DNA of 63,169 bases, counting the filler, from Licmophora abbreviata (lineage: Eukaryota): NCBI GenBank assembly GCA_900291995.1. It is 21 parts of 21 records of this genome, joined end to end, with 100 filler letters (N's around TTAATTAATTAA, not from the genome) between each part and the next. Parts side by side here need not be neighbours in the genome. Positions count along the whole stretch, not along the records: positions 56,189 to 59,666 come from OLMU01006329.1; positions 59,767 to 61,900 come from OLMU01006330.1; 19 more parts are not named here. One strand, written 5' to 3'. Under the pieces are notes generated by a model. It searched no databases and was not told where the DNA came from. It was given only the letters and a program-made list of their open reading frames with translations. The position numbers were made by a program, and so were the translations under genes. Of the stretch, positions 25,061 through 63,169 are shown piece after piece (within the stretch, counting starts at the first letter, position 1; the number at the start of each line of letters is the position of its first letter).

Positions 25061-25624
25061 CTTCCCTCACCACCAAGCCCACAGACACAAGGAGAGAGCA
25101 AGTATTCTGGCTGCCCTTTCCTCGTCGACAGCAGGAACTCTTGGCTACCATGATCTCTCTAAAGAAATACTCTTGACCACAATCCAGCAAGAAGAGTCTC
25201 AGTCCAATGGTGGCACAAGGCGATTGTTGTTTGATTGAGGATCAGCTCCCACCTTTTTGCTTTCAATGCATGTCCCTTTTGTTTATAAGTGNNNNNNNNN
25301 NNNNNNNNNNNNNNNNNNNNNNNNNNNNNNNNNNNTTAATTAATTAANNNNNNNNNNNNNNNNNNNNNNNNNNNNNNNNNNNNNNNNNNNNTTCGGGCAT
25401 TGTTAGGTTATTCGCGCCAGTCACGCGTGTTTGATAGCCTCGATTCTCTCGAATCGAACAGCGTAGACTTCATTTGGGTAGATTTGGATTGAGCCAGCCT
25501 GCTCTCCTCTCTTCCCGTGAGGTCGTATTTTCTGGGAACTCTTGCTTTGTGCGGTCAGAATTCACTTTCGCGCAATTTGCATACGTCTTTCCTTGACTTT
25601 CCAAGTGCCCATAAGTAATCAACT

Positions 25625-28600: not shown

Positions 28601-28950
28601 GCTGAGCTACCTGATGATGCTGTTGTCCCTGCTCCGATCGATCCTGCTCCCGATCCTGCTGTCGACACCGATTCCGTCTCTTCTGGTCACGTTCGCCCGC
28701 CTGAACCTGAACCTCCTCCGGCTATCGACGATCCGTCTCTACAAGGACTCCCTCAAGTCTGCCATCTCAATCGAGATGCACTTCGTCTTCAATGGCACAT
28801 TCGACTTGGCCACATGTCTTGGCGTCGCCTCTCGGAAATGCATAAACTGGTTCGTGGTGTCCCCAAGATCCCGTTGGCTTCCGACATTGATCAATGTCCG
28901 ACTTGTTTAGCTGCGAAGATTCGTAAAGCTAAGAAAGGCCGCGATTCTAC
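25625..28950 (+). CDS. gag - protease - integrase zinc finger of Copia E
   Basis: Uninterrupted ORF; protease AQLDSNSQVNVT..ILSP; WHIRLGH..CPTC HHCC motif. Confidence 0.88.
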
Positions 28951-29050
28951 NNNNNNNNNNNNNNNNNNNNNNNNNNNNNNNNNNNNNNNNNNNNTTAATT
29001 AATTAANNNNNNNNNNNNNNNNNNNNNNNNNNNNNNNNNNNNNNNNNNNN

Positions 29051-42955: not shown

Positions 42956-44276
42956 CTTCCCTATTCGGCGCCCTACGGATGAGGAGGGAAACGATCTTGA
43001 TCTTGTGGAGGACAGCGAGCGATTCGTTGTCGCACGTGCCGGGGACAATTTGTGCTGTCAGTTTCAGTGTGATTTGTGTCACTTTCGGAACATCCAACGT
43101 CGTAATCCGATTCCGACGAGTAGCAGGGATTCCCTTCTTCTCTCGTGCGTTCGGCGAGCTAATCTTGACGCGTTCTGGTCGCGGGAGCCGGGAACTGTCT
43201 CGAGTACCCGGAGTCAGACCCGGCTTTTGTTGAAAAAGAGTAGTGTTCTGGGCATTGAGGAACCGCTCCCTTCTCTTGGTCCCCACCCGGTAAAGGATGT
43301 TGTTGGGATGCGAGTCGCCTGCGCCACTCTGGTGCGGACTTTGGATCCCGGAAAGAATGAGGCCACCATTCAATTTGAGACGGCTCGGAAATTGCGGAGC
43401 GGATTTTCGAATGTTTGGCATGCCTCTGTTGAAGGGACGGGGGTTGCGGTGATGGCTCGAGAGACAACAAAGCTTTTTCACACGTCGTGTCCCACATTTA
43501 CTGATTGGTATGAGCGCTTCAACTTAGGCATGCACAAAAGAATGGGTGACAAGAGTATTCCAGATTTGGCCATCTCCATTGAGGTAATGCGAGAATTGAT
43601 GGACAGATTCGAACAAAAGTGGGAAGATGCGGATGGTGACAGGATGGCCCAATCACGTGTGTTATTCCCGGCGTTGTTTTCTGTTGTCTCGTTCTGCGGA
43701 GGACTGCGTGGGGAAGAGACGCCACTTGCTGACCTCGCAGGAATCCGGAGGCACTTGGACGAAAGCGGGCGCAACGCCGAGCAGCCTCATGTGGTAGTGG
43801 CTCTCTTGGGTCGCTTCAAGGGAGAAACAGGGGAGATGTATCATCTCTTGCCTCTGGCGGCTGAGTCAGCCTCGGGTTTAAAGCCCAGAGTGTGGGTTGA
43901 AAGGATGGTGGCATGGTACCAGAAGGACGGAGTGGTTGATGGCCCTGTGTTTCGACGAGGTCCGAAGCGGAGAGGCAGAGCTAGTGACTACGAAGTGGAG
44001 GTGTTGGATGTTTTGTGCAGTATTCAAGAAGGAGGCGATGCTATCAGTGAGCAAGTAGACGTCCGAGATGAATACGGTATGAGTCGGTCGTTTCGGCGAG
44101 GATCCACGACTCAAGCAGTGAATCAAGGTTTGGAAGAATCGGACATCGAAAGGAACAATCGATGGTCCAAGGTGGAACGGGCAAAGGGAAGAAAGCCCAC
44201 GTTTCGCATGATACAGCATTACACGGAAGTCAAACAAAATTTGAGAGCTTTACTCAAGTACTCAAGAGCTCTCTAG
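42726..44276 (+). CDS. Tyrosine recombinase with Cys-rich N-terminus
   Basis: GLRGEE (R), GRFKGE (K), SRSFRRG (variant HxxR), NRW and QHY. Overlaps the end of pol by up to 230 nt in another frame. Confidence 0.85.
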   Translation: MNLSLLEFVSLSSPTDPGDFEPPASWTTLKGNCEKCRRTISWSQGIFCGNYSAKREGWMPCRKAWCGNCYDVEMCPDFPIRRPTDEEGNDLDLVEDSERFVVARAGDNLCCQFQCDLCHFRNIQRRNPIPTSSRDSLLLSCVRRANLDAFWSREPGTVSSTRSQTRLLLKKSSVLGIEEPLPSLGPHPVKDVVGMRVACATLVRTLDPGKNEATIQFETARKLRSGFSNVWHASVEGTGVAVMARETTKLFHTSCPTFTDWYERFNLGMHKRMGDKSIPDLAISIEVMRELMDRFEQKWEDADGDRMAQSRVLFPALFSVVSFCGGLRGEETPLADLAGIRRHLDESGRNAEQPHVVVALLGRFKGETGEMYHLLPLAAESASGLKPRVWVERMVAWYQKDGVVDGPVFRRGPKRRGRASDYEVEVLDVLCSIQEGGDAISEQVDVRDEYGMSRSFRRGSTTQAVNQGLEESDIERNNRWSKVERAKGRKPTFRMIQHYTEVKQNLRALLKYSRAL

Positions 44277-44677
44277 CTTCAAGGGAACGACCCCGACATC
44301 GTATCCCTTGGAGACATTCCAGAGATCAAGAGCTCAACTCGGTTGGGGATCAGGGGGGGGTTATTACGCACCGACAGCCAGCCCAAACCTTCCAGGTATC
44401 GGCTACTGCGCCGATAGATTCAGGGACCAGGCAGCGGAGCAGAGTAGTCGTCGACACTGCGTGGCTGCAGTGTTGATACTTGGATTAGGAGAGCGGCAAA
44501 GGTGTGGAGGCACGCCGCTTCTCCTGGGCCCTCTTTTACAGAGGGNNNNNNNNNNNNNNNNNNNNNNNNNNNNNNNNNNNNNNNNNNNNTTAATTAATTA
44601 ANNNNNNNNNNNNNNNNNNNNNNNNNNNNNNNNNNNNNNNNNNNNACTCCCTCTGACAGTGGCGATTGTAACGTATG

Positions 44678-47600
44678 TTACCACTTCAGAAGTGCCTGTC
44701 GATGTTTAAGAAACAAGTTCTGCGGTAGTGGCTTGGTGAACATGTCTGCAATTTGTTCTGCAGTATCGATAGGGTAAATGCTAATCAATCCTTTCCTCAC
44801 GTAGTCCTTGAAGTGATGATAGATAAGGTTGATGTGTTTGGTGCGTGGTCGCATCTTGGGTAGTCTTGCTAGTTCTAGCGCTCCAGAGTTGTCTTCAAAT
44901 GCCTTGCAATGGACCGTCGTAGTTGTTGAAAGGATGTCGTGTCCGTATTTGCGAAGTTCTTTGACGAGTTCCATTAGAGGAATCGCGTTGCGTAGACTCT
45001 CTGATAGACTAATATATTCAGCTTCGGTAGTGCTGAGAGCAATCTGCGTTTGTAGTCTTGATGCCCAGAGTATAGGACAACCAGCGTAGGTAATGGTAAA
45101 TCCTGATCGTGATTTGGCTGTGCTGGAATCATTCGGTGCGGTAGTTCTATTCCAGTTTCCTGCGAAGTCAGCGTCCGCATAAACTTCTAGGCTTTTGTGC
45201 TTGCTAGGGTCGATGATCAGTCCTTGGTCGCGCGTGTCGCGCAGATACTTGCAAAGCCAAGTGATTGCTTCACCATGTGATTTCTTGGGGTCTTCACAAA
45301 ATCTGGCGATCTGGTGTGTCGCGTAGGAGATGTCTGGTCTGACGCTCTTCTCTAGGAAGTTGAGCTTGCCTACGACTCCGCGGTAGTGGAATCTGTTGTC
45401 GAAGCTGGGTTCACTGTTTGAGCGGTGCAGAATTTTGACTGCTGATGGCGTTTGTTTTCCTGTTGATCGCTTCGGCAAGTTGACCATGTCGATGATCTGA
45501 TCGATGAGATGCGGTTGCGTTAGCTTGAGTCGTCCGTCTTGGAGTGTCTCTACATTGACGCCGAGGTAGTCTTCGATCGTCCCTTGATCGTCTACATCAC
45601 AGCCTTGTCGTTTGATGTCGTTGATGGCTTTGTCGATGTCATTGCTGTCAGGTCCGGCGAAAATTCCATCATCAACGTATACGACGAAGATAACGTTGTC
45701 TCGGTAGTAGAGGCATTCGTCAATCTCGCTTTGAATGAAACCAATCTTCGTGAGGATGGTGTGTAGATGCTGGTTCCAGACTCTTCCTGCAGATCGATTG
45801 CCGTAAAGGTTCTTGAGGAGCTTGAGAACGTGAGTTTTACCGTTCCCATACTTTGTTTCGATGCCGTGGGGCAACTCCATGTAATGTTCGAACTCAATGT
45901 CGGCCTGTGGGTATGCTAAGACGAAGTCAATCTGTCTCGTGTGCCACTTGTGGAGGATCGAGAGGATCAGGATGCATCGAATGGTCATCCATGTAACGAC
46001 AGGTGCGTACGTCTCGAAGTAGTTGACTGCGAACTCTTGTTTGCCTCCGTGAAGGTTCAGGCGTGCTTTGTGCTTGTAAACCTGTCTCGTTTTGATGTCT
46101 CGTTTGCGTTTCATAGACCAGACGGCTGGGAGCACCTTTACGTCTGCAGGTACGTCCTCTCGTTTGACTAGTATCCAATGCTTTCTTTCGATGTGGTCGT
46201 TCACCTCTTTGACTGCTGCTTCGATGAATTGTTCTCGGTCAGGTTCACGCATGGCTTGATGAAAGTACATGGTGTCTTGATTGTTGGCAGTCATGAAAGA
46301 TACTGGTTCGAGCATTTGGTCTTGAATACGATAGTCTTCTTCATGCATGGCTTCGTAGTACTCGTCGTGAGCTTGATAAGAAACGAGGCCTGCTTGTCTT
46401 TGCGCTTGACTTTCACTCATCCTGTTCGTTTGTCGTACGGTTCTTCCTGATCGCGTTGTCACTGGCTGGTCGATGGGAGTAAGCTCTGTGGGCGGCTCTT
46501 CCATAGCTACGTCTGTAGTTCCTTGAGGATTGTCAGGTATTGTTTCCGTCACGGGGATGTGTGGTTTGTCGCTTTGAGGATCTCTGTCTTGAGACTCCCT
46601 CTGATCGTGTGATCTTCTCTCTTCGTGTCCGTCGAATATGTTGATACGGTCGGATTTCAGGTTTGGTTTGATGCCTGAGAGCGTCTGCCACTGTGAGAAT
46701 GTCTTCGGATTGCCTGCTGTAGGTCGGACTGTTTCAAAGAAGTCGTCGTATTGTAAGTGAAACTGTGGTGATACGAGTCCTGTTTCGAGATTCAAGACTA
46801 ACGAAACTGTGCCTGCGTGTCTTGTCGATGGACCGAGGTTGATACCAAGGCGTGAGCGTGAGTCCCACTTGGGAATTGCCTTGTTTCCTTGCAGCGAATT
46901 GTTGAGTGCAAATACTGGGCAACCGAAGGTGTGATGTGCCTTTAGATTTGGGGCGACTTCGACGGATGAGAATCTTTCGAGCGCGGAGCTTCCGTCGGAT
47001 TTGTCTGGCAGTTGGTTGCGTATCTCGTTCGAGTATCGCAATGCGCTTGGCCAGAGCTGTAGTTCAATGGCGGATGGCCATCGGGCTTTCGAGTGTAGCA
47101 AGTTCTTTCTCGCTTGTTCTTGGAGATCTCGTATTCGCTTTTCGGCTATCCCGTTTTGGAAATGTGCGTTGACTCCGCAGAAGGATATCGTCTGTCCTTG
47201 TAATTCGATGTCTCGCAGGTAAGCGTTGTCTGCGAAGCGCCCGTTGTCCGCGTGATAATGTCGAACTCTGACATGATGTCGCCTTGCGTATGCTTCGAAA
47301 GCATGCTTGGCTTGCAGAGTTTCTTCGGATGATAGAGACTTTTGCATGTGTACGTAACTCAGGCCGCTGAAGTGATCCACGAAAACGGTTGCCGCGGAGT
47401 ATCGAGCCTTGGTGAGTCTTCCTTTGAGTTGTGGTACAAATCCCGGTGTCGTGCTGATGAGCTGATCAACTGAGACACATTCGCCGGGGCGTTCGACTTT
47501 GATGATTTGTCGTTTATTTTCTTTTCCTTTCGTCCTCCATGGGCGTTTGGTCATGGCTCCATACATGCAGGATGCACACTTTGGCGTCTGTACTCGTGAT

Positions 47601-48838
47601 AACCGTCGAGGTAGAATGTTGAGTGCTGCCAGGAGTTGTATGTGTTTGAAGGATCGATGGCCGAGTCGGTAGTGCCATCTGAGAAGTTCGGCTTGGTCGT
47701 TAGTTGCCGATACTTGTTCGTCGGTTGGAATCAAGTGTGTTGGTTCTGGGACCTGAGTGCGGACTGAAGAGTGCGTGAGATCTTTCAAGTTTTCCTCGTA
47801 TTCGTCGATCGGTTGGAAGATAAGAGGGTCCGTTTCTCTGCCAGGTAATTCGGTAGTTTCCTGGTGGTGAGCTGTTTCGTCGCTATCCGGTGGAATAATG
47901 TGGGTCTCGTATGCTATGTGTTCGTGGGTCTCCACGTCGTTTGCTGAGTCGATGACGGCGGCATAGACTCGATAGTCGATAGCATCGGTGGCTGAGTAAA
48001 AGCGAGCTGTGTTTGTTGCTGGGTCCCAAGGTATCGTTCGTTTGTATTTTCTTTGATCCCATATGAGCTCACACTTGTCGGCGTAGTTTATGCTCAGCGT
48101 ACCGTCCACGGTAGGGTAATTGTCGTTTGCTTGCTTGCTCCATTGTTGAGGACATAGTAAGCAGATTGGTGATTCTGGTACGTATAATACGTTGTGTATT
48201 TGTATCGTGTGTACACGTCCATTGTCGTCTTCTAACCTCCATTTTACCGTTCCTGTTCCTTGGACGTTGACGACGTTTCCTCCAAATCCGCGGACTTGCA
48301 TGTCGCAGGATCGTATTGGCCCTTGGAAGTGTCGCTTGTTGTTGGAGATTGTCCTTGATGAGTGATTGTCAACTCCAATCAGAAAGGAATCGGTGTCGAA
48401 TCGGCAGATCGTTGGTCGGTTGAAGATGTTGTTCGACTTGTTGGTTGCGCCTTCGGTAGAGTTATACGCAACGTAGTTTGCTCGGTGAGTGACGGTGTAT
48501 CGCATTCGTTTGAAAGCAATGCGTCTTGGAGTTCGTTTGCTCCTGTTGGTTATGTATCGTTTGCAATAACCGGATCGTTTGTTTTGTTTGTATGGTTTTG
48601 GTTTCTTTTTCAACAGTTGTTCAATCGGAATATTGGAGGTGATCCAGTCTCCCAATGTCATTATTGCTGAAAACATGCGCAATGGTAGTTCGAAACCGGC
48701 GAGTGCGGCTATTCCCATGGTGATCACGATGGGAGCGGTAGCCTTAGCCACGATCGCTATTAGAAATGCTGCCATGAAGAGCGTCACCGCAAGGCTTGTC
48801 GCTTGCATCGTCTGGGCGAACACTCTCGTCAGCAGTAG
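44678..48838 (-). CDS. Copia C pol (intact), in frame with gag behind a single UGA
   Basis: Protease IGVDNHSS; WHYRLGH..CASC; integrase VSVDQ, HADNG, QNGIAE; RT YVDD; RNase H YADADFAG, STTEAEY, EDNSGA, ADMFTK. Confidence 0.95.
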   Translation of the reverse strand, partial: LLLTRVFAQTMQATSLAVTLFMAAFLIAIVAKATAPIVITMGIAALAGFELPLRMFSAIMTLGDWITSNIPIEQLLKKKPKPYKQNKRSGYCKRYITNRSKRTPRRIAFKRMRYTVTHRANYVAYNSTEGATNKSNNIFNRPTICRFDTDSFLIGVDNHSSRTISNNKRHFQGPIRSCDMQVRGFGGNVVNVQGTGTVKWRLEDDNGRVHTIQIHNVLYVPESPICLLCPQQWSKQANDNYPTVDGTLSINYADKCELIWDQRKYKRTIPWDPATNTARFYSATDAIDYRVYAAVIDSANDVETHEHIAYETHIIPPDSDETAHHQETTELPGRETDPLIFQPIDEYEENLKDLTHSSVRTQVPEPTHLIPTDEQVSATNDQAELLRWHYRLGHRSFKHIQLLAALNILPRRLSRVQTPKCASCMYGAMTKRPWRTKGKENKRQIIKVERPGECVSVDQLISTTPGFVPQLKGRLTKARYSAATVFVDHFSGLSYVHMQKSLSSEETLQAKHAFEAYARRHHVRVRHYHADNGRFADNAYLRDIELQGQTISFCGVNAHFQNGIAEKRIRDLQEQARKNLLHSKARWPSAIELQLWPSALRYSNEIRNQLPDKSDGSSALERFSSVEVAPNLKAHHTFGCPVFALNNSLQGNKAIPKWDSRSRLGINLGPSTRHAGTVSLVLNLETGLVSPQFHLQYDDFFETVRPTAGNPKTFSQWQTLSGIKPNLKSDRINIFDGHEERRSHDQRESQDRDPQSDKPHIPVTETIPDNPQGTTDVAMEEPPTELTPIDQPVTTRSGRTVRQTNRMSESQAQRQAGLVSYQAHDEYYEAMHEEDYRIQDQMLEPVSFMTANNQDTMYFHQAMREPDREQFIEAAVKEVNDHIERKHWILVKREDVPADVKVLPAVWSMKRKRDIKTRQVYKHKARLNLHGGKQEFAVNYFETYAPVVTWMTIRCILILSILHKWHTRQIDFVLAYPQADIEFEHYMELPHGIETKYGNGKTHVLKLLKNLYGNRSAGRVWNQHLHTILTKIGFIQSEIDECLYYRDNVIFVVYVDDGIFAGPDSNDIDKAINDIKRQGCDVDDQGTIEDYLGVNVETLQDGRLKLTQPHLIDQIIDMVNLPKRSTGKQTPSAVKILHRSNSEPSFDNRFHYRGVVGKLNFLEKSVRPDISYATHQIARFCEDPKKSHGEAITWLCKYLRDTRDQGLIIDPSKHKSLEVYADADFAGNWNRTTAPNDSSTAKSRSGFTITYAGCPILWASRLQTQIALSTTEAEYISLSESLRNAIPLMELVKELRKYGHDILSTTTTVHCKAFEDNSGALELARLPKMRPRTKHINLIYHHFKDYVRKGLISIYPIDTAEQIADMFTKPLPQNLFLKHRQALLKW

Positions 48839-50327
48839 TCATTCCTGTTGAATCTCTTCGAGAATGGTGGTGAGTGCGTTTGAAAAGCTTGTTTTCTTGC
48901 TTCCCATTGTCTCACTTTTGTCACCTTCGTCTGTTTTCTGTCTCTGGCGGTTACGACATCCGTTGGGGCCGTCGCCTTCTGGTTCATGAAGAACCCAAAC
49001 TGGAGTGGAGTGATAGGTGCACCAGTAGTAGTCTTTTCCGTCGACATGTTTCACGAAATAACTGTGTCCGTTCACGGTGGTCTTGGTGTCTCCGTCTTTG
49101 GGTGCTTTGAGTTTCCAGGCATATTTTGCGTCTTTGTTCTTCTTGCCGCTGGTCTTCTTCCCTTTCTTCTTATCTAATCCTGAGCTGGCGTTGGAGCTGT
49201 TGGAACTTTTGTAGTTGGAAGACTTGGTTCCGACTTGAGAGATAGCCTTGGAAAGTTTCAGGTTACTGTCCTTGATGGTCCTTAGTTCGGCTGACATGGC
49301 GACGATTTTCTCTTGATCGGCGGTGAGTGCTCCCCATTCTTTGTCGCGAGTGAGATTCGTGTACTTGTTAAGAGCGAGTTCCATGAGCCTCTCAATCGTC
49401 ATGTTGTCTCCGTCGTCGTACTTAGTTTTGTGATCTTTGATGTACTTGACGAATTCGGAGTCTCCGGCAGCGAGGTATCCGCGGAAGAGGTTGATCATGA
49501 GGTCGTCGCAGTTTTCTCCTCGAGCGGTAAGTCCGTCGCGATTTAGTTTGACGTACTTGTTGAACTCTTCGACGTTGCTGTTGATGCTTGACATGTAGGT
49601 GTCTAGACTCGATAGGTTCTCTCGGAGGTAGTTGGTGGTCGATCGTGTGTCGACGATGGCTTTCTGTGTCAACATCTTGAAAAGGATCGGTCCTGCCTCG
49701 GCTCCATTACGTGTGTAGAGCTCGGCTTCAGCGAGGATCTTGATGCGTGCGTCGTCGGTAAGTGATTGTGCAATGCACTTAAACATCTGAACCGCGTTCT
49801 GGGCTTGTCTGTTCTGTCCTTGGATGTATTCGTCCACGTGGGATTGCACGTTTTCAAGAGTCAATCTTCCATATTCTTCGAGAAGGTTCCTTGGGTTTCC
49901 AAGAGAGTCCTGGATCGTGAGAATGTTGCCTGTTCCAGCTGCCCATCCTGATTCGGTCGCGCGTTGCGTGAGTGATTCGCAGAACTGCTTGACGCCTTGA
50001 GAATCCGCGTTGAATGTAGTCGGCAGCTTTTTCGGTAGCGGCATTCCACAACTTGAGTCCTTGTGCTGTTCCATAGTCGATGAAACGGTCAGGACGGTGT
50101 TGACCTGGGGTCAGTGCGAAGACTGGAGCGGTTGGTGGTGCGTTAGCGCCAACGTTGGGGGGTCCAGGTGGTCCAGGTGGAGGTCCTTGTCCTGGTTCCC
50201 TTCCGTCGCTACTACCGGTACTTCCAGGTGAGGAAGGTGGTGAGCGAGCTGCGGCGGCGTAGGTTGCCGTGGTACGAGTCCTGGCGGTAGAGGCTCGAGT
50301 GGTAGCTGGAGTCGTTCCAGTGTTCAT
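48839..50327 (-). CDS. Copia C gag, with a 1-nt frameshift in an A5 run (50028-50032)
   Basis: Removing one A joins FALTPG..LKLWNAATEK to LPTTFNADSQ. C-terminal WCTYH..WVLH..C (CHHC) knuckle; ends GAA TGA. Confidence 0.8.
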
Positions 50328-51235
50328 CTTTGCGCAGAGGAAGCGTNNNNNNNNNNNNNNNNNNNNNNNNNNNNNNNNNNNNNNNNNNNNTTAATTAATT
50401 AANNNNNNNNNNNNNNNNNNNNNNNNNNNNNNNNNNNNNNNNNNNNAGTTTATCAGACCCAAACGTTAGGGATTAGTGAATGACCCTCGTTTTGGAAAAG
50501 AGAAGACCAGGGACGCGTTGCGCCTGGCAGGTGATTTCCTTCTTGTTGTTAGACGCGGTGATCGAAGCGCGTTCTACACGGTGGGGTTGCACGACGGTTA
50601 TGATAGCGGTGTAACGGAGCGACGCCTAACGTCCTGTTTCGATCCAGGAAAGTGGTTACTCGATAGGAAGATCCCTGGTGATCTCATCGGGTGTCTGCGG
50701 GATGCATAGGGTTCAAGTTTACGGGGACTTTCCCGCCAAACATGTGATGGTTCGCCAAGATTTGATGGCGCGGTTCGCATGGGAAATGACTGTGCATCCT
50801 GATGGCTCGGCCGCCGTCATGGTCATGGACCATGGCGACCGGCAGGGCAGGGCAAAGCAGCGCCGATCGCATGTCTGTTCGTCACACTACGTTGCAGCAG
50901 GAACACGTCGGTAGCGCGTGGCAATTGCGATTGTTGAAGCTGTCAGCAGCGCGATTTGCTGAGTTGTCGATGTATGAGCATCGGTCATTACCATTGAGTT
51001 TCCATTCCCTACGTCATACTGCTTTCATTGTCCCAGAGTGACCGGGAGGTCTATCTGTTTTCTTAGGAAGTCATTGAGATGCTTCATGATCCTGTGCTTA
51101 CGTTTTCATGCTTGCGTTGTATGCCACATCATTTGTGTTTGTGCGTGGCCATTTCCGAACTTGTTTGTTGTCTCACTTTTCTGGACTTTGTGATCGAGAA
51201 TCGTTGATTTGTTTTCAAGTTATCCACAAGCAACC

Positions 51236-52708
51236 ATGGCTGAAGCTATTACCTTTCGTAACGCGTTGACTCGTTGTGGCATCTTGCAGGGTGCCGCGTT
51301 GGATGTATTCCCTGAGCAGGGATTCACCAACATGGCGGAGTTCTCGCAGCTGACTGAGACCGAGATTGAGAGCTTCGTTCGTGCGGTGAACAAGATGCCG
51401 GTCGCGAGGATCCCTTTCGGATCGATCAAGAAGTTGAAGGCGATGCGTAACTGGGCGATCGAGAAGAATCGATTCGGGTTGCCGATCGACCATAACGAGT
51501 TCACCGGCGACGAGCTCAGTCGCATGGTCGTCAGGTTGGACTTTGAAGTTCATCTCGCGGTCAACAAACCGAAGACGCCCGACTTGCCGGAAAAGTTCGT
51601 TTCTTTCGGAACCAAGTGGCGGGCTTTCAGCGAAGGGTTCTCCGGCCATTGTAACGTGGCTCGCGGTTGTATGAACATCCCGCTTTCGTATGTGTTGCGT
51701 GATCATGTCGTTGTCACCGATGAGATTCGTGCGGTGGTGTATGGCACTTCGGATGCGCGTTTGATGGATTGTGTTCGTCTTGAAGGTGACGAGTTTGATC
51801 AAGACAACAATCGTGTGTGGGATTTGTTGCGCCCTTTGGTTTATGACACCGCGGCGTGGAACTACGTGAAGCAGTATGACAAGACAAAAGACGGACGCAA
51901 GGCTTTCCGTGCCTTGGTTCTTCGTGGGGATGGAGAGGCCGCGAAGGAAGCGCGTCGCGCTCGTGCGGAAGACATCATTGCGAAGGCATCGTTCACGGGT
52001 TCCAGTAAGCGTTTCACTTTGCAGTCGTACATCAACATTCTTCAGGGCGCGTTTACCGAGTTGGCTGAGTGTGGAGAGGAGGAAGAGTATTCGGAGAGGA
52101 AGAAGGTGTCCGTGTTCTTGAAAGGTCTTGTCGCCGATCGTTTCAAGGTGACGCGCCAGTTGATCTTGCAGAACCCGACCCTTCGTGATGACTTTCAGAA
52201 GGCTTATGCATTCTGCGAAACGGCGAATCAACTCAACCAACCTTTAGGCTCAGGCTCGGATGCGGTGGGTGGCCGGAACGTGTCGGAGATGGAGCGCTCC
52301 TCGGGCAAGGGAAAGGGCAAGGCTAGTCGTTACCTGCCTAAAGAGGAGTGGTTTGCTTTGTCGAAGAAAGAACGTGGGGCTATCATCGCAGCGCGTAAGA
52401 CCGGAAAGACTGGAGGTGGATCGGGTGCTTCGAGCGGGGATGGTAGTAAGCCGAAGGTCCATTCGTCCAAGCGCAAGCTTGCCGAGTTAGCTTCGACTGT
52501 CGCCAAGATGCTCGATGGATCGGAAACTGGCGGAACTGAGGCTTCCACTGATGGCTCAAAGGATGATGGTGGAAACAGCAGTAAGAAAACGGCAGGGACA
52601 GGTACGCAGGATGGCAATCCCGCAAATCAGTTCGGCCGCAACGTGCACGCGGTGATGCGCAAGTTTGCGAACGCCGTGCAGGAAGAGTTGGGCGGGAATA
52701 ACGAATGA
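51236..52708 (+). CDS. Copia A gag
   Basis: ATG in ACCATGG context; IPLSYVLR, DNNRVWDLL, KDGRKAF, KKVSVFLKGL and ANQFGR are all paralleled in Copia B gag. Confidence 0.85.
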   Translation: MAEAITFRNALTRCGILQGAALDVFPEQGFTNMAEFSQLTETEIESFVRAVNKMPVARIPFGSIKKLKAMRNWAIEKNRFGLPIDHNEFTGDELSRMVVRLDFEVHLAVNKPKTPDLPEKFVSFGTKWRAFSEGFSGHCNVARGCMNIPLSYVLRDHVVVTDEIRAVVYGTSDARLMDCVRLEGDEFDQDNNRVWDLLRPLVYDTAAWNYVKQYDKTKDGRKAFRALVLRGDGEAAKEARRARAEDIIAKASFTGSSKRFTLQSYINILQGAFTELAECGEEEEYSERKKVSVFLKGLVADRFKVTRQLILQNPTLRDDFQKAYAFCETANQLNQPLGSGSDAVGGRNVSEMERSSGKGKGKASRYLPKEEWFALSKKERGAIIAARKTGKTGGGSGASSGDGSKPKVHSSKRKLAELASTVAKMLDGSETGGTEASTDGSKDDGGNSSKKTAGTGTQDGNPANQFGRNVHAVMRKFANAVQEELGGNNE

Positions 52709-55700
52709 CCCGCGGCAGCTTTGTCTCGTACGCCACAGAAACGTGTGTCGTTCTCTGTTGCGCGTGGGGACACGGTATTTTACATACAAGAGTTGAACGG
52801 ATCGAGTCCGGCCCAGCGGTTCGAACTGGACTCGCATGCCGATACAACTGTTGGCGGAAGTAATTGTGTGTGTCTTGCCACTACAGGCGAAACAGTAACA
52901 GTCCATTCGTTCTCGAGCGAAAGGAAGCCTTTCTCGGAGATCCCTGTCGCGTCGGTTGCGACATCTTGGGTGGATCCCCGAACAGGAGAGACGATCGTGT
53001 TGGTATTTCATGAGGCTCTTTATTTTGGTGATCGGCTCGATCACTCACTTATTTGTCCCAATCAACTGCGTTCGTTCGGCGTCACTGTTGCTGACACTCC
53101 CCGTCAGTTTGATTCTTCGTCCTCTCACTCCATTCACAGACGTGATGCAGAGGTTGACGTAGAGATTCCTTTAGAATTGGATGGTGTGATCTCTGGTTTT
53201 GTCTGCCACCGCCCTACCACAGAGGAGTTGGAAACTTGTCGGCGCGTTGCTTTGACAAGCGATGCCTCTTGGGACCCCAAGGACGTTAATTTTGCGGCCC
53301 AGGAAGATGCTGTTCATCATCGATCAATCTCTGGAGTTCTCCAGAACGGGGACAGATCTCATATTATGGAGCCTCCTGAGTTGCTAGATGAAAACACGTT
53401 TGGAGCGAGGCTGGTTTCCGCCGTTAATGTTGCATCAGATGATTTGAGTGGGGATGGGATGTCGGGCTACAGTGATAGAGACTTGTTCTTACGATCCGAG
53501 GAACGGCGACAGTTGTCGGCTTTGTCTTCAAACGACAAACGGTCGGTGGTAACGAAGGAGGTCTTGGCTAGGAGATGGGGGATTGGTATGGGCACGGCTC
53601 ACCGAACCCTGCGCGTGACGACTCAGCGGGGGGTGAGGACTTTCTTGCACCCGACGGATCGGCGCGTTAGAACCATCCAGCCGCACCTCGTATTTCCCAC
53701 GATGCGGGGAAAGAAGATGTACACCGATACGATGTTTGCGAAGGCGAGGTCGGTACGGTCTTATACGTGTGCCCAGGATTGGTCGGATGGAAACGGGTTC
53801 ACCCTGCTTTATCCGATGAAGAGCAAGGCCGAGGCACCGACTACCATTTCCAGGATGATTCATGATTTGCAAGGGATACCGGAGGTGATCGTGAGTGACG
53901 GCGCAAGGGAGGAGACCAGTGACCAAGTGGAAGTCGGAGGTTCGGCTCTTTAGGGCCAAGTCTCATGTGACAGAGCCTTACTCACAGTGGCAGAACAGGG
54001 CGGAGGCAGACATCAACCAGGTAAAGCGTGGGATCAAACGTGCAACTAAACAGAGTGGCTCACCCAAGCGTTTATGGTGTTTCTGCGGCGAATGGGTTGC
54101 GGCGATTCGGCGGAAGACGGCCCATGACTTCGCAGCTCTCGATGGATTGACTCCGGAGGAGGCGATCTTTGCTCGGCAGGTTGATATTTCGGCGTATGTA
54201 CAGTTTGACTGGTACGAGCCGGTGTGGTACATCGACCCGGCGGAAGGGGCTGCGGAGTCACGTCGGAAGCTTGGTCGTTGGATCGGAGTCGCAGAACACC
54301 AGGGTGCGCCGATGACGTACATGATCCTACCGAAGTCGTGTATTCCGATTGCTCGGAGTTCGGTGTTCCCGGTGAACGGGGACGAACAGATGTCTGATGA
54401 GTATCGAAGAGAGTTGGAGTCGCTTGACAATGCCATCCGGCAGCGGATTGGAGATGACGTCGGCGACGAGGATGTCGATTTCGAGATCGACGGAATCCCT
54501 GAGATACCAGACGACTTGTTCGAAGAATCGGTCGGCGCTAATTGGGAGCCGGCTGACGGTGAAGAGCGGATGCCCGAGGCGGATGAACAATATTCTCCTG
54601 AGTCGTTTGATCAGTACCTGACCGCGTCGGTAATGATGGACAGGGGAGGGGAGCTCATGCGGGGCACTGTGAAGGGCAGGAAGCGGGACGTAGAGGGGAA
54701 TCCGGTCGGGAGATCAAACAGCAACCCTCTTCTCGATAGTCGAGAGTACGAGGTAGAGTTCCCGGACGGCTCGCTCGACGTATTCACCGCTAACACTATT
54801 GCCGAAGCTCTGTATTCACAGGTGGACGAAGAGGGGCGGCATTATGCCGTCCTCTCCGAGATCATCGACCATAGGAAGGACGGGAATGCGCTTGCCGCCG
54901 ACGACGCGTTCATCGAAGGCACGCATCACCGTCGAAGGACCACCAAGGGTTGGCAGCTTCTTGTCAATTGGAAGGATGGGACCTCCGATTGGCTGCCTCT
55001 GGCAGAGATCAAGGAGTCCTACCCGGTCCAAGTCGCGGAGTACGCCGTGAACAACAAGGTTGCGTCTGAGCCCGCCTTTGCATGGTGGGTCCCGCACGTC
55101 TTAAGGAAGCGCGACCGTATCATCAAGAAGGTGAAGTCGCGTTACTGGAAACGTACCCACAAGTTCGGAATCGAGGTCCCCAAGACAATACAGGAAGCAT
55201 TCAATATAGACCGCTCTACCGGTACGGACTTCTGGAGGAAGGCCTACGAGAAGGAGATGCGGAATATCAAGATTGCTTTTGACGTTCGGGAGGATGGCAA
55301 GGTTCCGGTGGGCTACAAGGAGATTAGGTGTCACTTGATATTCGATATCAAGTCGGATACTTTTGATCGCAAGGTCAGGTTCGTGGCCGGTGGTCACTTA
55401 ACCGACCCACCTAAGGAATCGACTTACTCGAGCGTTGTCTCAAGGGACAGCGTTCGGCTGTTCTTTCTCATTGCCGCACTGAACGACCTGGATGTGCTCT
55501 CGTGTGATGTGCAGAATGCTTACATTAACGCAGAGACGAAGGAGAGGGTTTGGTTCAGGGGCGGGGACGAGATGGGACCGAATAAGGGCAAGGTGATCGT
55601 GATCGTGCGAGCGCTCTACGGTTTAAAATCGTCAGGAGCTTGCTTCCGGCGGCTGATGGCATCGACGCTTCAGAGTCTCGGGTTTTCTAGTTGCAAGGCT

Positions 55701-56088
55701 GACCCCGATTTGTGGATGCGGAAGGCGATGAAGCCGGATGGGACCAAAGTGTATGAATATGTACTCTGCTATGTAGATGACCTGATCTTTCAGGGTTTGA
55801 AGCCCGACGATTTCATGGGTCTGCTGCGGAAGAAAGGATTCACTCTCAAGGATGGTTCTGTCAAGGTGCCGGACCGTTATCTTGGGGCCGACATTGCGAT
55901 GAAAGAGCTGGCCGATGGAAGTAAGGCGTGGTCTTTGTCGTCGGATACGTATGTGAAGCGAGCCGTTGCGGAAGTCGAGCGTGAGCTCGAGAAGGTAGGG
56001 CAGCAGCTCAAGAAGAAGGTTCGATCTCCGTTGGCGTCTGGGTATCGACCTGAGTTGGACAGTACGCCGGAGCTCGATGAGAAACGCG
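52709..56088 (+). CDS. Copia A pol (protease, integrase, RT), one frameshift near 53920
   Basis: ELDSHADT; YTDTMF, VSDGA, QNRAE; RT DVQNAY, ALYGLKSSG, YVDD. The frame changes between EETSD and KWKSEV, inside the integrase core. Confidence 0.9.
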
Positions 56089-56410
56089 NNNNNNNNNNNN
56101 NNNNNNNNNNNNNNNNNNNNNNNNNNNNNNNNTTAATTAATTAANNNNNNNNNNNNNNNNNNNNNNNNNNNNNNNNNNNNNNNNNNNNGTCCCCGCGAGC
56201 CAGTAACATAACATGATGCTGGTTCGTCCAGCTAACCTTTGTCTCTCAGAGGCCGGATCTCCTATTCTTCGTGGTTCCAGTCACTTGCTGTCACTCCACG
56301 CGTTCTTTTCTTGGGGTTTAGGTTCAACATCGGCAACGACGCCTAATCCTCAGGTCCGATTCCATTTTGGAAACGGTTGTGTGCTGATAGCTAGTCCCCA
56401 TTTTGGGTAA

Positions 56411-59400
56411 TCACCATAACACCTGCCCGATTAACTCTCGTAACCGTGGACCGGGCAATAACTTGGTCAACAAGTCCGCAATATTGTACTTGCCTTCCTC
56501 CCATGCGATACGTACGATACCTGCAGCTTGTGCTTCGCGCGTTCGATGGTAGGCAATTGCATTGTGTTTCTTCTTCAATGTTGATTCTGGGTGAGTCGAA
56601 TTCTTGAACACCGATTCGTTGTCACAAAAGACATTCGTTGCTCCATCAACAGGTATCCCCATCATCCGAAGCTTGTACCTCAATGCTTCAATCTGTTCAA
56701 TGGCAGTCTTCATAGCCACAAATTCGCTACCAAACGTACTCGATTCCACGGTGTTCTGCCGCTTCGAGTACCAGATGATTGGCGCGCGCATCAGGAAAAG
56801 AATGATGCCTGTGTGTGAACGTCTCGTCACACGACAACCTGCATGGTCTGCATCGACGAAGCAAGTCGTCGTGACTGATGCTCCACGTAACTCGGGTGCC
56901 TTTGGTGGGGTCGGCTCATGCGCCCCTGGATAGTACTCTCCCCAGTCGCTCTTAGTAAAACGGGACTCGTCGAAAGTTGGCTCTGTCTCATCGAATACCA
57001 ATTTCGATCTTCCGTAGGCCTTAAGATAAGCGAAGATATGAAGTACCTCTTCCAAATGACCAACGCGTGGTTCAGCCAAGTGTCTAGATAGCAGCGCCAC
57101 GGCAACGTGGATGTCAATCCGGCCGAGCTCCACAATCCATCGTAGGACACCGATCAGTCCCTGGAAATAGTTAGCGCGTCGTGCGTCGAGAGTCCTGGAC
57201 ATGTCAATCTCAGGACGGTAACCAGCACTGAGGGGCGTTTTGACTTTCGTCTTGAGGAATTTCCCCGCCTGACTAAGCTCCCGCTCGACATCGGCGATTG
57301 CTCTCTTCACATATAGGTCAGACGACATCGCCCATCGTTTCTTGGTTGGATTCTCTGCGCCTGGGATCTCGACCTTCGAGATCTCCGAACCGAGATAAGC
57401 ATCCGGTTCCTTTACACTTCCCTTCTTCAGGGTGTAGTGTGCCGACAAGTGATCGAGGATGGCTCTTGGGTCGTGTGATACGGCAAGGATATCATCGACG
57501 TACACAAGCACATACTCCCAATATTTCGTACCGTCGGTCTTGGTATTGGGCCGCATCCAAACGTCCGGGTCTGCAAGGCAGCTCTCAAAGCCAGCCTCTC
57601 GTAACGTTGCTGCCATGTGGTCCCTCCAACGAGCTCCGCTGGACTTCAGCCCGTAAAGGGCACGTACTATGAATGCTGGTCTCCCCTGTCTCGCTTTCCC
57701 GAACTCTGGTCCAGCGACAGTGTAACAACGCTCCTTCGTCGGCGCGTTGAGATACGCATTCTGTACGTCAGCAGAGAGAATGTCAAGATCGTTGAGTGCG
57801 GCGATTGTAAAAGCGATCCGCACACTGTCACGTGACACAACACTCGAATACGTCGACTCCTTCGGCGGATCCGTCTCGTGTCCTCCTGCTACAAAACGGG
57901 CTTTTCGGGTTAGGTCCATTTTCACATCAAAAATGAGGTGGCACGAGATCCGCTTGTATCCGATCGGCACGTCGTCGCCTTCACGGAACTCGAATGCGGG
58001 ATCAACGTTCATCATCTCCTTCTCTATGGCCTGTTTCCAGAAGTCAGTCCCCGTTTTCGCATCAACCTCCAATGCTGTTCTACCGTCTTCGGTAGCTCAA
58101 TCCCAAATTTGTGAGAACGAGCCCAGTACCGCGATTTGACTTTCTTCACGATCCGATCACGTCGCCGCAAAACCGTACGAGTCCACCAAGCAAAGGCCGG
58201 CTCTTCCGATATCTTGTTGGCAACCGCGTACTCTGCGACTTCGACCGGGTTCGACTCCTTGAGGTCTTTCAGCGGTATCCAGGATGACGAGCCGTCTTTC
58301 CATTCGACGAGTAGGTCCCAACCAACTGTGGTAATGCGCCGACGGCGCGTGCCATTGGCTGAGGTAATCCATCCGTCGTCGATCGGTACTGCTGTCGGCC
58401 CTTTCCTGTGATCCACGATGTCAGAAATAATCTCATAAACACGGCCCTCATCGTCGACCTGCGCCCACATGTTCGCTGCGATCTGATTTGCCGTGAACGC
58501 TTCAGTAGAACCGTCTGGGAACTCCACGTCGTACATTCGGCTATCTAACATTGGGTTGTTGTGACGGGTGCCAATCGGCATGCCGTCAATGTCTCGTTTT
58601 CGGCCGATAACTTTCGCCGACAAGCTTTCGCCACCGTGTGGTAGCATGACGTTCATCGTCAAGTATTCATCCAGTGCCTCTGGGGTGGTTTCGTCAGCTT
58701 CTGGCTTTGCTGACTCCGGGTCGAATGGTTCGAGGGTCGCTTCATCGCCCTCAAATAGATCGTCTGGTGGTGGTGGCATTTGTTCGGCTAGTTCTGCCGG
58801 CACATCGTCATCCGCCACTTCATCGCCCAAACGCGATCTAATCCCATCGTCGAGTACCGTCAAGTCTGCCATGATAGCTGGGTCCTTCATCTCATCCTGA
58901 GAAAGGGACCATACGGACTTCCGCACCTTAACCCTGCCAGTCTCTGTCAGGATCACGTTGGCGGCTTCATCCGTGTAGTTCTCCGCGATCCCCAGCCATC
59001 TTCCAATCTTCTTGCGTTGGAAAGGGAAGGAATCGACAGGATCATAGTAATAACAATACTGGTAAAAGTCGAACATCGCATATACAGAGATGTCTGGTGT
59101 TGATCCCAGAACATGCTCCGTCGGCGATCGGCCCTCGAGTGCCGCGATGTCCAATGCTGTGAGGCGACGAATCGCCGTCACCCACTGTGCTGCATAGCAC
59201 CAAGTCCTGCGCGGTCCTCCTGACCGCCGCATCGTTCGTCGTACTCCTTTCTTCAACTCCCGAATCGACGATTCAGCTAGGTTCTGCCATGGGCTGTACG
59301 GGAGAGAGATATTGTGCTCAATCCGGTACTCCTGCATGGTCGACCGAGCTCTACCCGCGATTTCCTCCATCGCGCCGTCCGTCACAAGGGTCTTGGGCAC

Positions 59401-60011
59401 ACCGACGTCGTGGATCAACGACATGAGGGTGTCCGGCGCTTCCGACTTTCGTTTCCAAGGATAGAAATAATCGAATCCGGCCCCATTCGTGTATACCGAC
59501 CCACCGGTGTATCCCCTAATCGATTTCACTTTCGAGAACATCTCATCGGCATACATCCGACCGCTCATTGAAGGGAATTTCATCCAGGGTCCCCGGCTCC
59601 GAACACGACGTTCGGCTGGGACGAGAACATTCCTAATCCCTTGCTGGGTCGTTACTCTGAGCGTCTNNNNNNNNNNNNNNNNNNNNNNNNNNNNNNNNNN
59701 NNNNNNNNNNTTAATTAATTAANNNNNNNNNNNNNNNNNNNNNNNNNNNNNNNNNNNNNNNNNNNNCCGGCAACAAAGGTGTCGGCATGGCTGTCAAGTT
59801 CGCAATAGTGAATCGTCTCCTCCTGCGGACCATGGGCAGTGGAGAGGTTAGACAAGATACGAATGGTGCAGAGGTGACGTCCTCTTGGGGAACGACAGAA
59901 GTGAGTTGGCCCGGGCTTTGGGTGGTGTTGTGCTAACGTAAGACTAGTAACGTTAGCGCTATCGTTCATCGATAGCTCGTTACAACACGTAGTCAAACCC
60001 GGCGCGGCTTG
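56411..60011 (-). CDS. Copia B pol, one frameshift near 58077, gap 59667-59766
   Basis: YADEMF, VTDGA, QNLAE; YVDD; FVDADHAG, SSTFGSEF, CDNESV, NIADLLTK. A 1-nt loss separates PKTVEQ from ALEVD. Confidence 0.92.
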
Positions 60012-61523
60012 TCATTCCTGCTGGCGTTCTTGGCCTCCCTGTCCGTACTTCGGAACGGACCTCTTGTGAGCGAGTCGTCCGAACTGACTAGCAGCCGACG
60101 CTCCTCCCGACTCTTTTGATGAGTCTATGTCGGTACTGAAAGTAACCGACCCAACCGTTCGCGACTTCTTCGACGACGGTTCCTCCTCCGATCCTACCGA
60201 ACTGTTGTCGGTAACGACACGAGCAATCTCCTTAATGAAAGACTTGACCGATTCATCGTCGACGGTCTCTTTCGTTTTGAGCTTCTTCGCCGCCGCACGC
60301 TTCCGTTTGAGCTCCACTTTCTGTTCGGGAGTGAGCTTATGGTAGTCTTTAGAAGAGAGATAGGTAGCCGACGAAAGCGCTTTGTCGTACGAGCCCCCCT
60401 TTCCACCGGCTTTCCCACGTTGTCCTTTGCCCGTTCGAGCGGCACCGACGTTACGGCTGCCTGCCGAATCTGCGGACGCCTGGCTCCTCAAGTTCTCAAG
60501 GACCGTCTTAAGATACTGCTGGCAAGTCTCGAAGCTTGTAAGCTTCGCCTCGTCACCGCTAATGATCTCTTTGGCCGTCTGCAAGCGTGGGTCCTGGATG
60601 CCCTGTAGAAAGTCGGCGACTTTCTTTGTCTCTGCCACCTCTTCCTCAAGGTCAAACAATTCGTTGTGAGCACGCTGATGCTTGGTAACATAGGCATCAT
60701 ACGAGTGTTTGCCCCTTCCCGTGAAACGGGCCACCTTAATCTCCGCGTAGGCCTTGGCTTTCCTGACTGTCTTCGCCGCCGGACCCTCAGCCTGCATCTT
60801 CAATGACAGATAAGCCGCGCGACCGTCCTTAGCACGATTGTGTTGTTTGATGAAGGTCCAGCCTTGTCCCGCAACAACCTTGCTCTTAAGGATCGCATAC
60901 AGCTTCTGGTTGTCGCGCGCGTACTGAGATCCGGTGAGAGTCGTCGTCGCCACCAAGTCTTCGTCGACAGTGGCGTAGTCGGCGGCCCTCATGGCGTCGG
61001 TCACCTCGGTTGAATCGCGGATGAGGTAGGTTAAGGGAACGCTCGTTGCACTTGTGCTGCGAACAGTCGACAGGTAAGTCGACAAACGTTCATCGAACGT
61101 GATCCAATTCTTCATAAAGTCAAGATCAATTGGCGACACTTCGTCGTCGGAATCATCCTTCGACGTCACCAACGTCAGCTGTTCCAACCAACGATCAATT
61201 GCTACAGCATTGAACCCCCCTGGAGCCGCGTTCTGTCCACGGGACACACGATACTCGATCCACATTCGGAAAGCTTTAAGCTTCCTGATTGCCAAGTAGG
61301 GGAAAGTTGGGACCTGCTGTGGGGCGTCACCGGGTGCGACAGCTTGTTGCATCGCCGGTCGATCGCGGCCCATCTGACGGATCAGTTGATCGATCTCCCC
61401 CAGAGGGAGGGAACGGAGGTTTTCGGTACTATCGATACCCTGTTGTTCAAGATACGTTACCGTGGTGGGGTTGAAACCACACCTGTCAAGTGCCGCCCTG
61501 AAGGCGGCCATGTGTGCTGCCAT
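60012..61523 (-). CDS. Copia B gag
   Basis: 503-aa ORF homologous to Copia A gag (VPLTYLIR, DNQKLYAIL, KDGRAAY, KKVADFLQGI, ASQFGR); ends GAA TGA. Confidence 0.88.
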   Translation of the reverse strand: MAAHMAAFRAALDRCGFNPTTVTYLEQQGIDSTENLRSLPLGEIDQLIRQMGRDRPAMQQAVAPGDAPQQVPTFPYLAIRKLKAFRMWIEYRVSRGQNAAPGGFNAVAIDRWLEQLTLVTSKDDSDDEVSPIDLDFMKNWITFDERLSTYLSTVRSTSATSVPLTYLIRDSTEVTDAMRAADYATVDEDLVATTTLTGSQYARDNQKLYAILKSKVVAGQGWTFIKQHNRAKDGRAAYLSLKMQAEGPAAKTVRKAKAYAEIKVARFTGRGKHSYDAYVTKHQRAHNELFDLEEEVAETKKVADFLQGIQDPRLQTAKEIISGDEAKLTSFETCQQYLKTVLENLRSQASADSAGSRNVGAARTGKGQRGKAGGKGGSYDKALSSATYLSSKDYHKLTPEQKVELKRKRAAAKKLKTKETVDDESVKSFIKEIARVVTDNSSVGSEEEPSSKKSRTVGSVTFSTDIDSSKESGGASAASQFGRLAHKRSVPKYGQGGQERQQE

Positions 61524-62000
61524 GATATTGCGTATTTGCGTCTTCGCGCAAAATTATGTGGCATAAAACTCCGGCTGTCATCGCCTAAATAAGAATGAGC
61601 GAGCGTCCGAGTCGGACAGCTCTAACGATTTTTCAATGGTCATAATCGTAAACCCATATAAATTGTACCTGCGTCACTTCTGCAGGTGCCCCATAACCAA
61701 TGGTCTTTATTGGTTGCTGTTTAGTGCATTCGTGCCGGCTCGCTCTCTTTTAGCGAGTATTGGCATCGCCCGACAAACTTCTTCCCGGGTGCGAGAAAGT
61801 GTTTAGCGTCAAGACGACGATGGGCTGGTACCGGTGCCCCGCGATCCCCATGTGCACCATGGGGCGATCGCCATCACGCGAATGGGTCTGATAAACTCAG
61901 NNNNNNNNNNNNNNNNNNNNNNNNNNNNNNNNNNNNNNNNNNNNTTAATTAATTAANNNNNNNNNNNNNNNNNNNNNNNNNNNNNNNNNNNNNNNNNNNN

Positions 62001-63169
62001 ATCTGTGCCTAGTTTCTTTCCTGGTCCCGGGTCCTTGGCCGGTACCACTCCCATAATCTGATCGCGAAACTTGCAAAACAATGCTCCTTGAAGCGGTTTC
62101 GTCATGAAGTCGCCGATCATGTTCCCTGTGGGACACCACTCGATTTTCAATTCGCCATTCGATACTCGATCAGTAATAAAGAAGTATCGAATGCTGATAT
62201 GCTTCGTCCGTTTGCTGCTTGACGCTTTGCCGTTTTTCTCTAGAAGCATCGAACTCTTGTTATCCTGGAACAAGATGTTATCCACGACGTCGTATCCTTG
62301 TGCCGCCATGAAGTAACGCGTCCAGCAAATTGATGGCATGAAATCGTCTGCTCCAACAATCTCTGTTTCCGTGGAGCTTCGAGTGTTCAATTTCTGCTTT
62401 GTTGAACTCACAATGGGAAAACCTCTTCCCAGCGACAGTCCTCCTCCAGAGTGACCGCGCATATTCGGATGGACTGCAAACGATGCGTCCACCCACCATT
62501 TTAGAATGCCGCTTCCGTTGGCACTCAGTACTAGAGGCAGTGTACGTGTACCTCTCAAGTACTTGATAAGACGAGACAACTTCTTCCAGTCGTCTTTGTC
62601 GGGCGCTCTCACCCTCGTGGTCAGGAACGCGATCGCAGTGCATGTGTCCGGTCTGGCTCTTTTTGTAGCATAGAGTATCTTCGCAACTATGTTGTGAAAC
62701 TCGACTGCCTTGTTCGTCTGGAGTTTCTCACAATCTTCGTTGACTGAAAATAGGTTGTCAGGTGCTGCACTCGTCTTTGTTCCTCTTCCTTTAGGATCTG
62801 CTTTGTCGAAAGCAGTAATAATCTCTTCGATGTAGTCGAGCATCAAGTGTCATGCCGAGGTACTTGTGGATCTTACCTCGGCTCACTGACATTGCTCCAG
62901 ACCCATCTTCGAATATACTTTCGTATTCCTCTCGTAGCCATTCGATCGTATCATCGTTGACTCTGCTCTTTTTGTGGCTCAGCTTGCAATCATCGACATG
63001 AAAGCAAATTGTAGATTGCTGGCCTTCGATGACTTTGTTCGCTATGCATGGATCGTATGGGTTGATCTCATATCCGCGGCTTTTCAAGCTCGTGGTGAAT
63101 TTGCGGTAGTAGAGCAAACTCGTGACCATTGTTCCATACAGTGCATTCTGGCACTTCACCAGAAGTTGG
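62001..63169 (-). pseudogene. Ty1/Copia fragment D: RT - RNase H with an internal deletion and frameshift near 62845
   Basis: ALYG, FHVDD and YLGMTLD, then a jump to MLDYIEEII in another frame (about 10 codons apparently missing); WVDASF, SSTETE, QDNKSS, GDFMTKPLQG. Confidence 0.88.

Follow-up and report, generated by a model that had tools for sequence, protein, structure and literature searches.

A probable UGA readthrough signal with a conserved basal helix at the gag-pol junction of a diatom Ty1/copia retrotransposon

The stretch of DNA analyzed here (the window) comprises 63,169 nucleotides, filler included, from Licmophora abbreviata (NCBI GenBank assembly GCA_900291995.1). It consists of 21 short contigs, between which stand spacers of 100 N's with a fixed linker. 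The element of interest lies on its minus strand, on the contig OLMU01006330.1 (59,767 to 61,900) and probably also on OLMU01006329.1 (positions 56,189 to 59,666), and has the following parts.

61689..61699, minus strand: primer-binding-site-like motif upstream of gag, by sequence
60015..61523, minus strand: gag ORF of 503 aa, without a Pfam family over the cut-off
60012..60014, minus strand: gag stop UGA, context GAA-UGA-CAA, in frame with pol by frame check
59768..60011, minus strand: start of pol, predicted to be read through the stop, with an ELDSHADT protease motif near 59798; ends at the assembly gap
58024..59664, minus strand: mid-pol ORF, assigned to the integrase region by position, on the adjoining contig and probably of the same element; no Pfam match
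56411..58096, minus strand: RT/RNase H part of pol (RVT_2, E 7e-18)

On the content of these ORFs, the element appears to be a Ty1/copia retrotransposon of the CoDi type in a diatom host: the reverse transcriptase is copia-type by RVT_2, the protease is assigned by a weak fold match and the integrase by position, in an element that crosses an assembly gap. The motif at 61689..61699 may resemble the copia-type tRNA-Met primer site. Gag has 16 homologues at 30–47% identity, with the nearest Atlas clusters mostly from Bacillariophyta, and the pol relatives cluster with Fragilaria crotonensis proteins; no named CoDi sequence was among the gag or pol relatives found. The diatom host is also seen in 11 matches over cut-off to the silicon transporter family PF03842 in the L. 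abbreviata genome. A model of the ELDSHADT domain, built from relatives, matched only retroviral aspartic proteases, and weakly (4 of 48,161 chains, Z 2.1–2.9); aligning the protease against PDB sequences gave 0 matches, and Foldseek gave none at E 0.001. Beyond the gap, the start of the mid-pol ORF corresponds to residue 327 of the pol of a sister locus, L021 (16 of 22 residues identical), and the RT/RNase H ORF is out of frame with the preceding pol ORF near 58024–58096, a break due either to decay or to an assembly error. At the DNA level, the only relative in the L. abbreviata genome was the locus itself, and four scans of viral contigs found none.

Several observations concern the surroundings of the element. 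Most of the short contigs in positions 1–44600 of the window carry mobile-element-like ORFs, presumably non-LTR RT-like and tyrosine-recombinase-like, as judged by eye. Many high-GC pattern matches in the L. abbreviata assembly look bacterial by eye, and the assembly may include contaminant contigs. Conversely, diatom-type copia elements turn up in prokaryotic MAG contigs (L101, L104–L117 and protein P0165), most likely as eukaryotic contamination.

Past the UGA, the gag frame of the window element stays open for 71 codons, as far as the protease motif, and both other frames are closed by several stops within the folded region, which is therefore coding in one frame only. The first-pass annotation placed four nested helices here, within 92 nt and starting 9 nt after the UGA (60014–60012), and folding bore out the span, the spacer and the coordinates of all four (pair probabilities 0.93–1.0).

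60003..60011, minus strand: 9-nt spacer from stop to helix, same length in the sister loci L021 and L022
59994..60002, minus strand: 5' arm of basal helix P1 (conserved part), by folding and alignment
59982..59988, minus strand: 5' arm of P2, paired with 59931–59925 (mean probability 0.98), not kept in relatives
59958..59976, minus strand: hairpin P3, 7 bp (mean pair probability 1.0)
59932..59957, minus strand: hairpin P4 of 8 bp, a near twin of P3 (mean pair probability 0.99)
59925..59931, minus strand: 3' arm of P2, by folding
59911..59920, minus strand: 3' arm of P1, with G 59916 at a conserved bulge column, by folding and alignment

This three-way junction is both the minimum free energy and the centroid structure, at −43.2 kcal/mol, and P1 pairs 60002–59998 with 59915–59911 at a mean probability of 0.99. 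Its z score is −4.41 in a 121-nt and −6.00 in a 110-nt sequence, and none of 200 dinucleotide shuffles matched it in either. Codon-preserving shuffles, the check proposed with the annotation, upheld the fold at z −3.18 (1 of 1000 as good), on a scale where the minimum over 33 windows slid along this element was −2.81. The annotated register of upper P1, UUUG/CAAA with G 59916 bulged out, stands as the homologous one, which covaries with relatives, but has a probability of only 0.06 when the window sequence is folded alone; that sequence favors a U-G wobble register instead (0.93; −40.6 vs. −38.3 kcal/mol). At the fifth pair, both sides are exchanged between P3 and P4 (U-A against A-U); the twins are probably one duplicated hairpin, and the swap suggests later selection for pairing. 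The P3 loop holds the sole in-frame AUG (59969) ahead of the protease motif. The P4 loop contains a palindrome of 6 nt as well as 5 nt with complementarity to the P1/P2 internal loop, a match expected by chance in ~3% of cases; these 5 bp are the only pseudoknot-like feature noted. The same stop and structure occur in contigs of two sequencing runs from different studies, although one run, X1, may be the source sample; its contig carries a change that breaks the first P4 pair (depth 3.5, possibly an error) and keeps the fold, at −39.5 kcal/mol. No joints were seen in the contigs of these runs, a result without bearing on splicing or expression. Rfam returned no family at gathering score, and the best match, snoRNA sR28, was rejected as chance (17.6 bits vs. 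a cut-off of 39). The classic readthrough context UGACUA occurs at the top of P1 (59990–59995, minus strand), where it is out of frame, probably also by chance.

To place the stop in its family, we compared junctions from both of its sides. A search with a gag alignment yielded the best 80 of 102 confirmed metagenome loci, plus one from genome contigs. On the protease side, 86 loci were examined (including the best 80 of 102), of which 59 had the motif, 52 were non-redundant and 44 were kept; the eight dropped were degenerate, with a short upstream frame or a stop far from the motif (4 UGA, 2 UAG, 2 UAA), and L015 (UGA-CGG) stayed outside the counts, having only 25 codons upstream that are not gag-like. 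All 44 intact junctions in this set carry UGA, and the next nucleotide is C in 39; the following triplet is CUG in 14, CUA in 8 and CGG in 7 of the 44, and CAA in the window element alone (1/44). From the gag side (83 loci, 70 with a stop), UGA ends 50 of 50 full-length gags, duplicates included, whereas the 20 premature gag stops are mixed (8 UAA, 6 UAG, 6 UGA) and are followed by C in only two cases. Where a gag-side locus has the protease motif, the motif is in frame with no stop between in 41 of 45. A separate protease-based scan of 14 loci found an upstream in-frame stop in 12, all UGA, though one of the 12 repeats L101 and one is doubtful. The gag motif was absent from 120 of the 120 best pol relatives, the longest of which had 1435 aa, in a search that admitted lengths up to 2645 aa. 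Because UGA stands at every intact junction while premature stops are mixed, comparison of these loci indicates that the gag-pol junction is programmed and not a product of decay.

Other copia-like sequences in the window and genome deserve mention in their own right. A second copia family has its gag at 51194–52708 (plus strand) and its stop at 52706–52708, GAA-UGA-CCC, in frame with pol and, 9 nt further on, a hairpin that is long and irregular (z about −1). In a third, more distant family, a gag-like ORF at 50110–48839 (minus strand) ends at 48839–48841 in GAA-UGA-CUA, in frame with a 1386-codon pol, with a modest stem after it (z −1.8 for 80 nt); GAA-UGA-C is thus found at all three copia junctions of the window. 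Elsewhere in L. abbreviata, L009, L018 and L019 read UGA-CUG, UGA-CUG and UGA-CUC and have strong hairpins (best z −3.3, −4.9 and −6.1, respectively). In L016, also from L. abbreviata, and at window positions 25619–29002, a copia-like gag runs into a protease-like region without a stop, so single-ORF families coexist in this genome. In L031 (~2240–3057), the gag frame stops early and a different frame runs open over 286 codons as far as the true UGA junction, the result of an indel or of a frameshift upstream of the readthrough site.

Structure downstream of the UGA is shared more widely than the three-way junction. Nucleotides 11–17 past the stop have mean pairing probabilities of 0.85–0.96 across the 44 junctions, compared to 0.51–0.59 in 78 control windows, and mean z is −1.79 vs. 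−0.80 (p 3e-4, without kinship correction). Folding strength is uneven, with z below −2 in a 105-nt window at 14 of 44 junctions and in 14 of 78 controls. The helix starts 7–10 nt past the stop in 34 of 43 folds, computed with the first 6 nt held unpaired. In a gag tree of 42 rows (L009 and L019 left out), the window element groups at 98/98 with L029, L031, L030, L021 and L022. L021 and L022 share its 9-nt spacer; their helix aligns with P1, including the bulged G, and carries a single long, irregular hairpin on top, and L030 is similar; L031 and L029 form weak branched folds of unrelated sequence (z −1.49 and +0.35 for the pair). The helix is weak or missing at L029, L088 and several distant loci. 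The three-way junction had been proposed as a dedicated motif, a view that the five nearest relatives do not bear out, being three long single hairpins and two weak branched folds.

Covariation points to the base of the structure. A 16-row alignment made from sequence only, joining the window clade, a neighboring 9-row group and L032, is quoted here over a hand-picked 10-row version; L029 does not align in it. Its sole consensus structure is the bulged basal helix, with 95.2% of cells paired (20–58% in slid controls), both-side changes at 5 of 7 pairs, and covariation as high in 0 of 500 shuffles, which ignore relatedness. G occupies the bulge column in 14 of the 15 rows aligned. Since the window copy itself supplies two aligned compensatory changes (C-G to G-C and C-G to U-A), we take the bulged register to be the homologous one. 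A third group of 22 rows has a different, 13-bp hairpin after 7 nt, with 93% paired and 5 of 13 pairs covarying. Synonymous variation is suppressed over its spacer and stem (0.28–0.55 bits at codons 1–3 vs. 1.7–2.0 at the protease motif's four-fold sites), and a synonymous change accompanies an Asp/Asn change in 6 of 21 rows. A covariance model, also proposed with the annotation and built on the neighboring 9-row group, recovered its nine training rows and the held-out L032, but failed to find the window junction at E up to 5; it likewise missed the clade-mates L021, L022, L029, L030 and L031 at that level. A loose motif search of the L. abbreviata genome stayed at background (81+76 vs. 69+67). 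From these alignments, the conserved feature is a basal helix ~7–10 nt past the UGA and not the three-way junction, which, to judge from its occurrence in the window element only, is a local elaboration.

Because gag and pol share one frame, the UGA-C is conserved and a covarying helix lies 9 nt downstream, we consider it likely that the junction acts as a programmed signal for UGA readthrough and so sets the ratio of Gag to Gag-Pol in a diatom Ty1/copia retrotransposon. The earlier claim of a recoding element survives to this extent: the readthrough distance, the conserved UGA-C with in-frame pol and the covariation of P1 all support it, and the part that fell is the three-way junction as the shared motif. 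By analogy with Type II viral systems, C after UGA would weaken release-factor recognition, and with the UGA in the A site the basal helix would sit at the mRNA entry channel and delay termination. A near-cognate tRNA could then decode the UGA in a few percent of passes. Near-cognate tRNAs for UGA are those for Trp, Cys or Arg. The ribosome would next unwind the structure and make Gag-Pol, keeping the ratio of Gag to Gag-Pol high. In Venezuelan equine encephalitis virus (VEEV), a stem after an 8–9-nt spacer raised readthrough 10–14 fold and compensatory changes restored it, and removing the enclosed region did not lower readthrough but raised it further (PMC3159437, in the sections consulted). 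Since the VEEV stem drives readthrough and its enclosed region is dispensable, P1, the basal bulged helix, would be the working part here, and P2-P3-P4 would form a lineage-specific apical domain that holds the P1 arms together and may tune the level.

One alternative, which we regard as unlikely, is that readthrough needs UGA-C alone and that the helix is kept for packaging, dimerization or shielding from nonsense-mediated decay. Weak or absent helices at some intact-looking junctions (L029, L088) would fit this, as would fission-yeast elements that conserve only GAA-TGA-CT (PMC10085805, in the parts consulted). It does not account for the fixed distance from stop to helix (7–10 nt, 34 of 43) across groups with differing helix sequences, and the palindrome in the P4 loop, which could speak for another job, is present in the window element only. 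We give a similarly low probability to the idea, in line with the first-pass annotation, that readthrough in this lineage depends on the entire three-way junction together with a tertiary fold. The junction is among the most stable of those folded (z −6.0), its near-twin hairpins with their both-side swap suggest selection after duplication, and the 5-bp loop-loop match is rare by chance; yet all five nearest relatives lack it, no relative close enough was found to check covariation of P2–P4, and the equivalent VEEV region is dispensable (PMC3159437, as noted above). Slightly more doubtful still is a further elaboration, in which the readthrough stem of this lineage has grown into a regulatory domain: the twin hairpins, together with back-pairing of the P4 loop to the P1/P2 internal loop or its palindrome kissing a second genome, might let dimerization or Gag binding switch the Gag to Gag-Pol ratio, with the conserved bulged G as a specific ribosome or protein contact.

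We think it very unlikely that pol is made without readthrough, whether by re-initiation, by starting internally at an AUG, from an internal promoter or by splicing that removes the stop. An in-frame AUG does lie in the P3 loop, the stop falls inside two in-frame intron-like spans (60048 to 59959 or 59944), and the Tca2 junction has a cryptic promoter (PMC2194720, in the sections consulted). However, an in-frame AUG ahead of the protease motif is lacking at 11 of 44 junctions, intron-like spans are no more frequent at junctions (9/44) than at control positions (21/87), and none of these routes accounts for the strict in-frame UGA-C. That the UGA encodes selenocysteine, with the helix as a Sec redefinition element, seems highly improbable to us. 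Diatoms have selenoproteins, and the stop is always UGA. Stems near Sec codons are known (PMC3159437, in the text consulted). Against this, no SECIS family matched in window positions 44000–63169 at E up to 1, in an element whose 3' end is incomplete, and none reached gathering score in 10 related loci, most of them without a 3' end; moreover, the bias toward C at +4 is a signature of near-cognate leakiness, and the codon falls at a linker and not at a catalytic site. That this copy is dead, its stop a nonsense mutation and its fold due to chance, is hardly credible: the pol frame break near 58024–58096 would suit such a reading, but it is contradicted by the shared position of the stop in every intact relative and in contigs from two runs of separate studies (one of which, X1, could be the source sample), by a fold found 1 in 1000 and by the covarying basal helix. 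As for −1 frameshifting, positions 59768–60200 hold no slippery heptamer and the −1 frame is closed at 39 of 44 junctions, and we rejected it.

In the literature searched, we found no description of readthrough or of a basal helix in diatom retrotransposons, and the sections consulted of PMC2774666, PMC5445492, PMC3587641 and PMC13578239 have nothing on this junction. What we describe is apparently a conserved readthrough signal of a known class, as its sequence features suggest, that had gone undescribed in diatom elements. Structure-stimulated UGA readthrough is established for RNA viruses, and Tca2 is the one LTR-retrotransposon case that we found tested. The natural variants of the diatom family (short and long hairpins and a three-way junction) form a test set for how a downstream stem promotes readthrough. 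If our reading is true, it would mean programmed recoding in stramenopiles, for which the literature searched gave no report. There is also a practical consequence, as gene callers annotate gag and pol separately and give pol a wrong start codon, and elements that are intact may be recorded as broken.

Among known systems, CoDi elements are described as having gag separated from pol by a single stop or a frameshift (Maumus et al. 2009, PMC2806351), and the text consulted names no stop identity, context, readthrough or RNA structure. Type I signals such as that of TMV read UAG-CAR-YYA, of which the window sequence UGA-CAA-GCC fits only CAR, and the Type III signal of MuLV, UAG-G with a purine-rich spacer, differs from UGA-C. 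MuLV does resemble the diatom junction in that a gag stop is read into protease and the structure, ~8 nt downstream, also encodes the start of pol; unlike the UGA-C and nested helix of the window element, it has UAG-G, a purine-rich spacer and a pseudoknot of the H type (PMC13517186, in the parts consulted). The fission-yeast elements Tj1, Tcry1 and Tosmo1–3 have an in-frame gag stop in the same GAA-TGA-C context, but are Ty3/gypsy elements, for which the sections consulted report an 8-nt context and no downstream stem (PMC10085805). Closer in kind is Tca2 of Candida albicans, a Ty1/copia element with gag-UGA-pol in frame and a predicted structure after an 8-nt spacer (PMC2194720). In the sections consulted, this structure is a predicted pseudoknot without covariation support, whereas the diatom helix covaries across dozens of elements; the Tca2 junction gave no readthrough in S. 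cerevisiae reporters, a caution for similar-looking junctions (PMC2194720).

The strongest resemblance is to the Type II signals of alphavirus nsP3/4, furo-, pomo- and tobraviruses and coltivirus (Firth et al. 2011, PMC3159437, in the sections consulted here). The annotation had not recognized a described motif, but UGA-C, a spacer of 8–12 nt, a bulged stem and a variable enclosed region are known together from alphaviruses (PMC3159437). As in the diatom family, Type II signals have C after the UGA, a spacer of 7–12 nt, compensatory changes and the polymerase downstream, and their stem of 10–12 bp has a 1-nt asymmetric bulge (on the 3' side in Sindbis) and a variable, possibly structured region between its arms (PMC3159437). 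The differences are that the signal belongs to an LTR retrotransposon in a diatom host, where readthrough is predicted; that the window triplet is CAA (mostly CUG, CUA and CGG in the family), where the Type II consensus is CUA or CGG, with exceptions (PMC3159437); and that the enclosed region of the window element is a compact, very stable three-way junction, with a conserved G as the bulged base. Taken together, the best reading of the junction would be a UGA-C readthrough signal of the Type II class with a lineage-specific apical domain.
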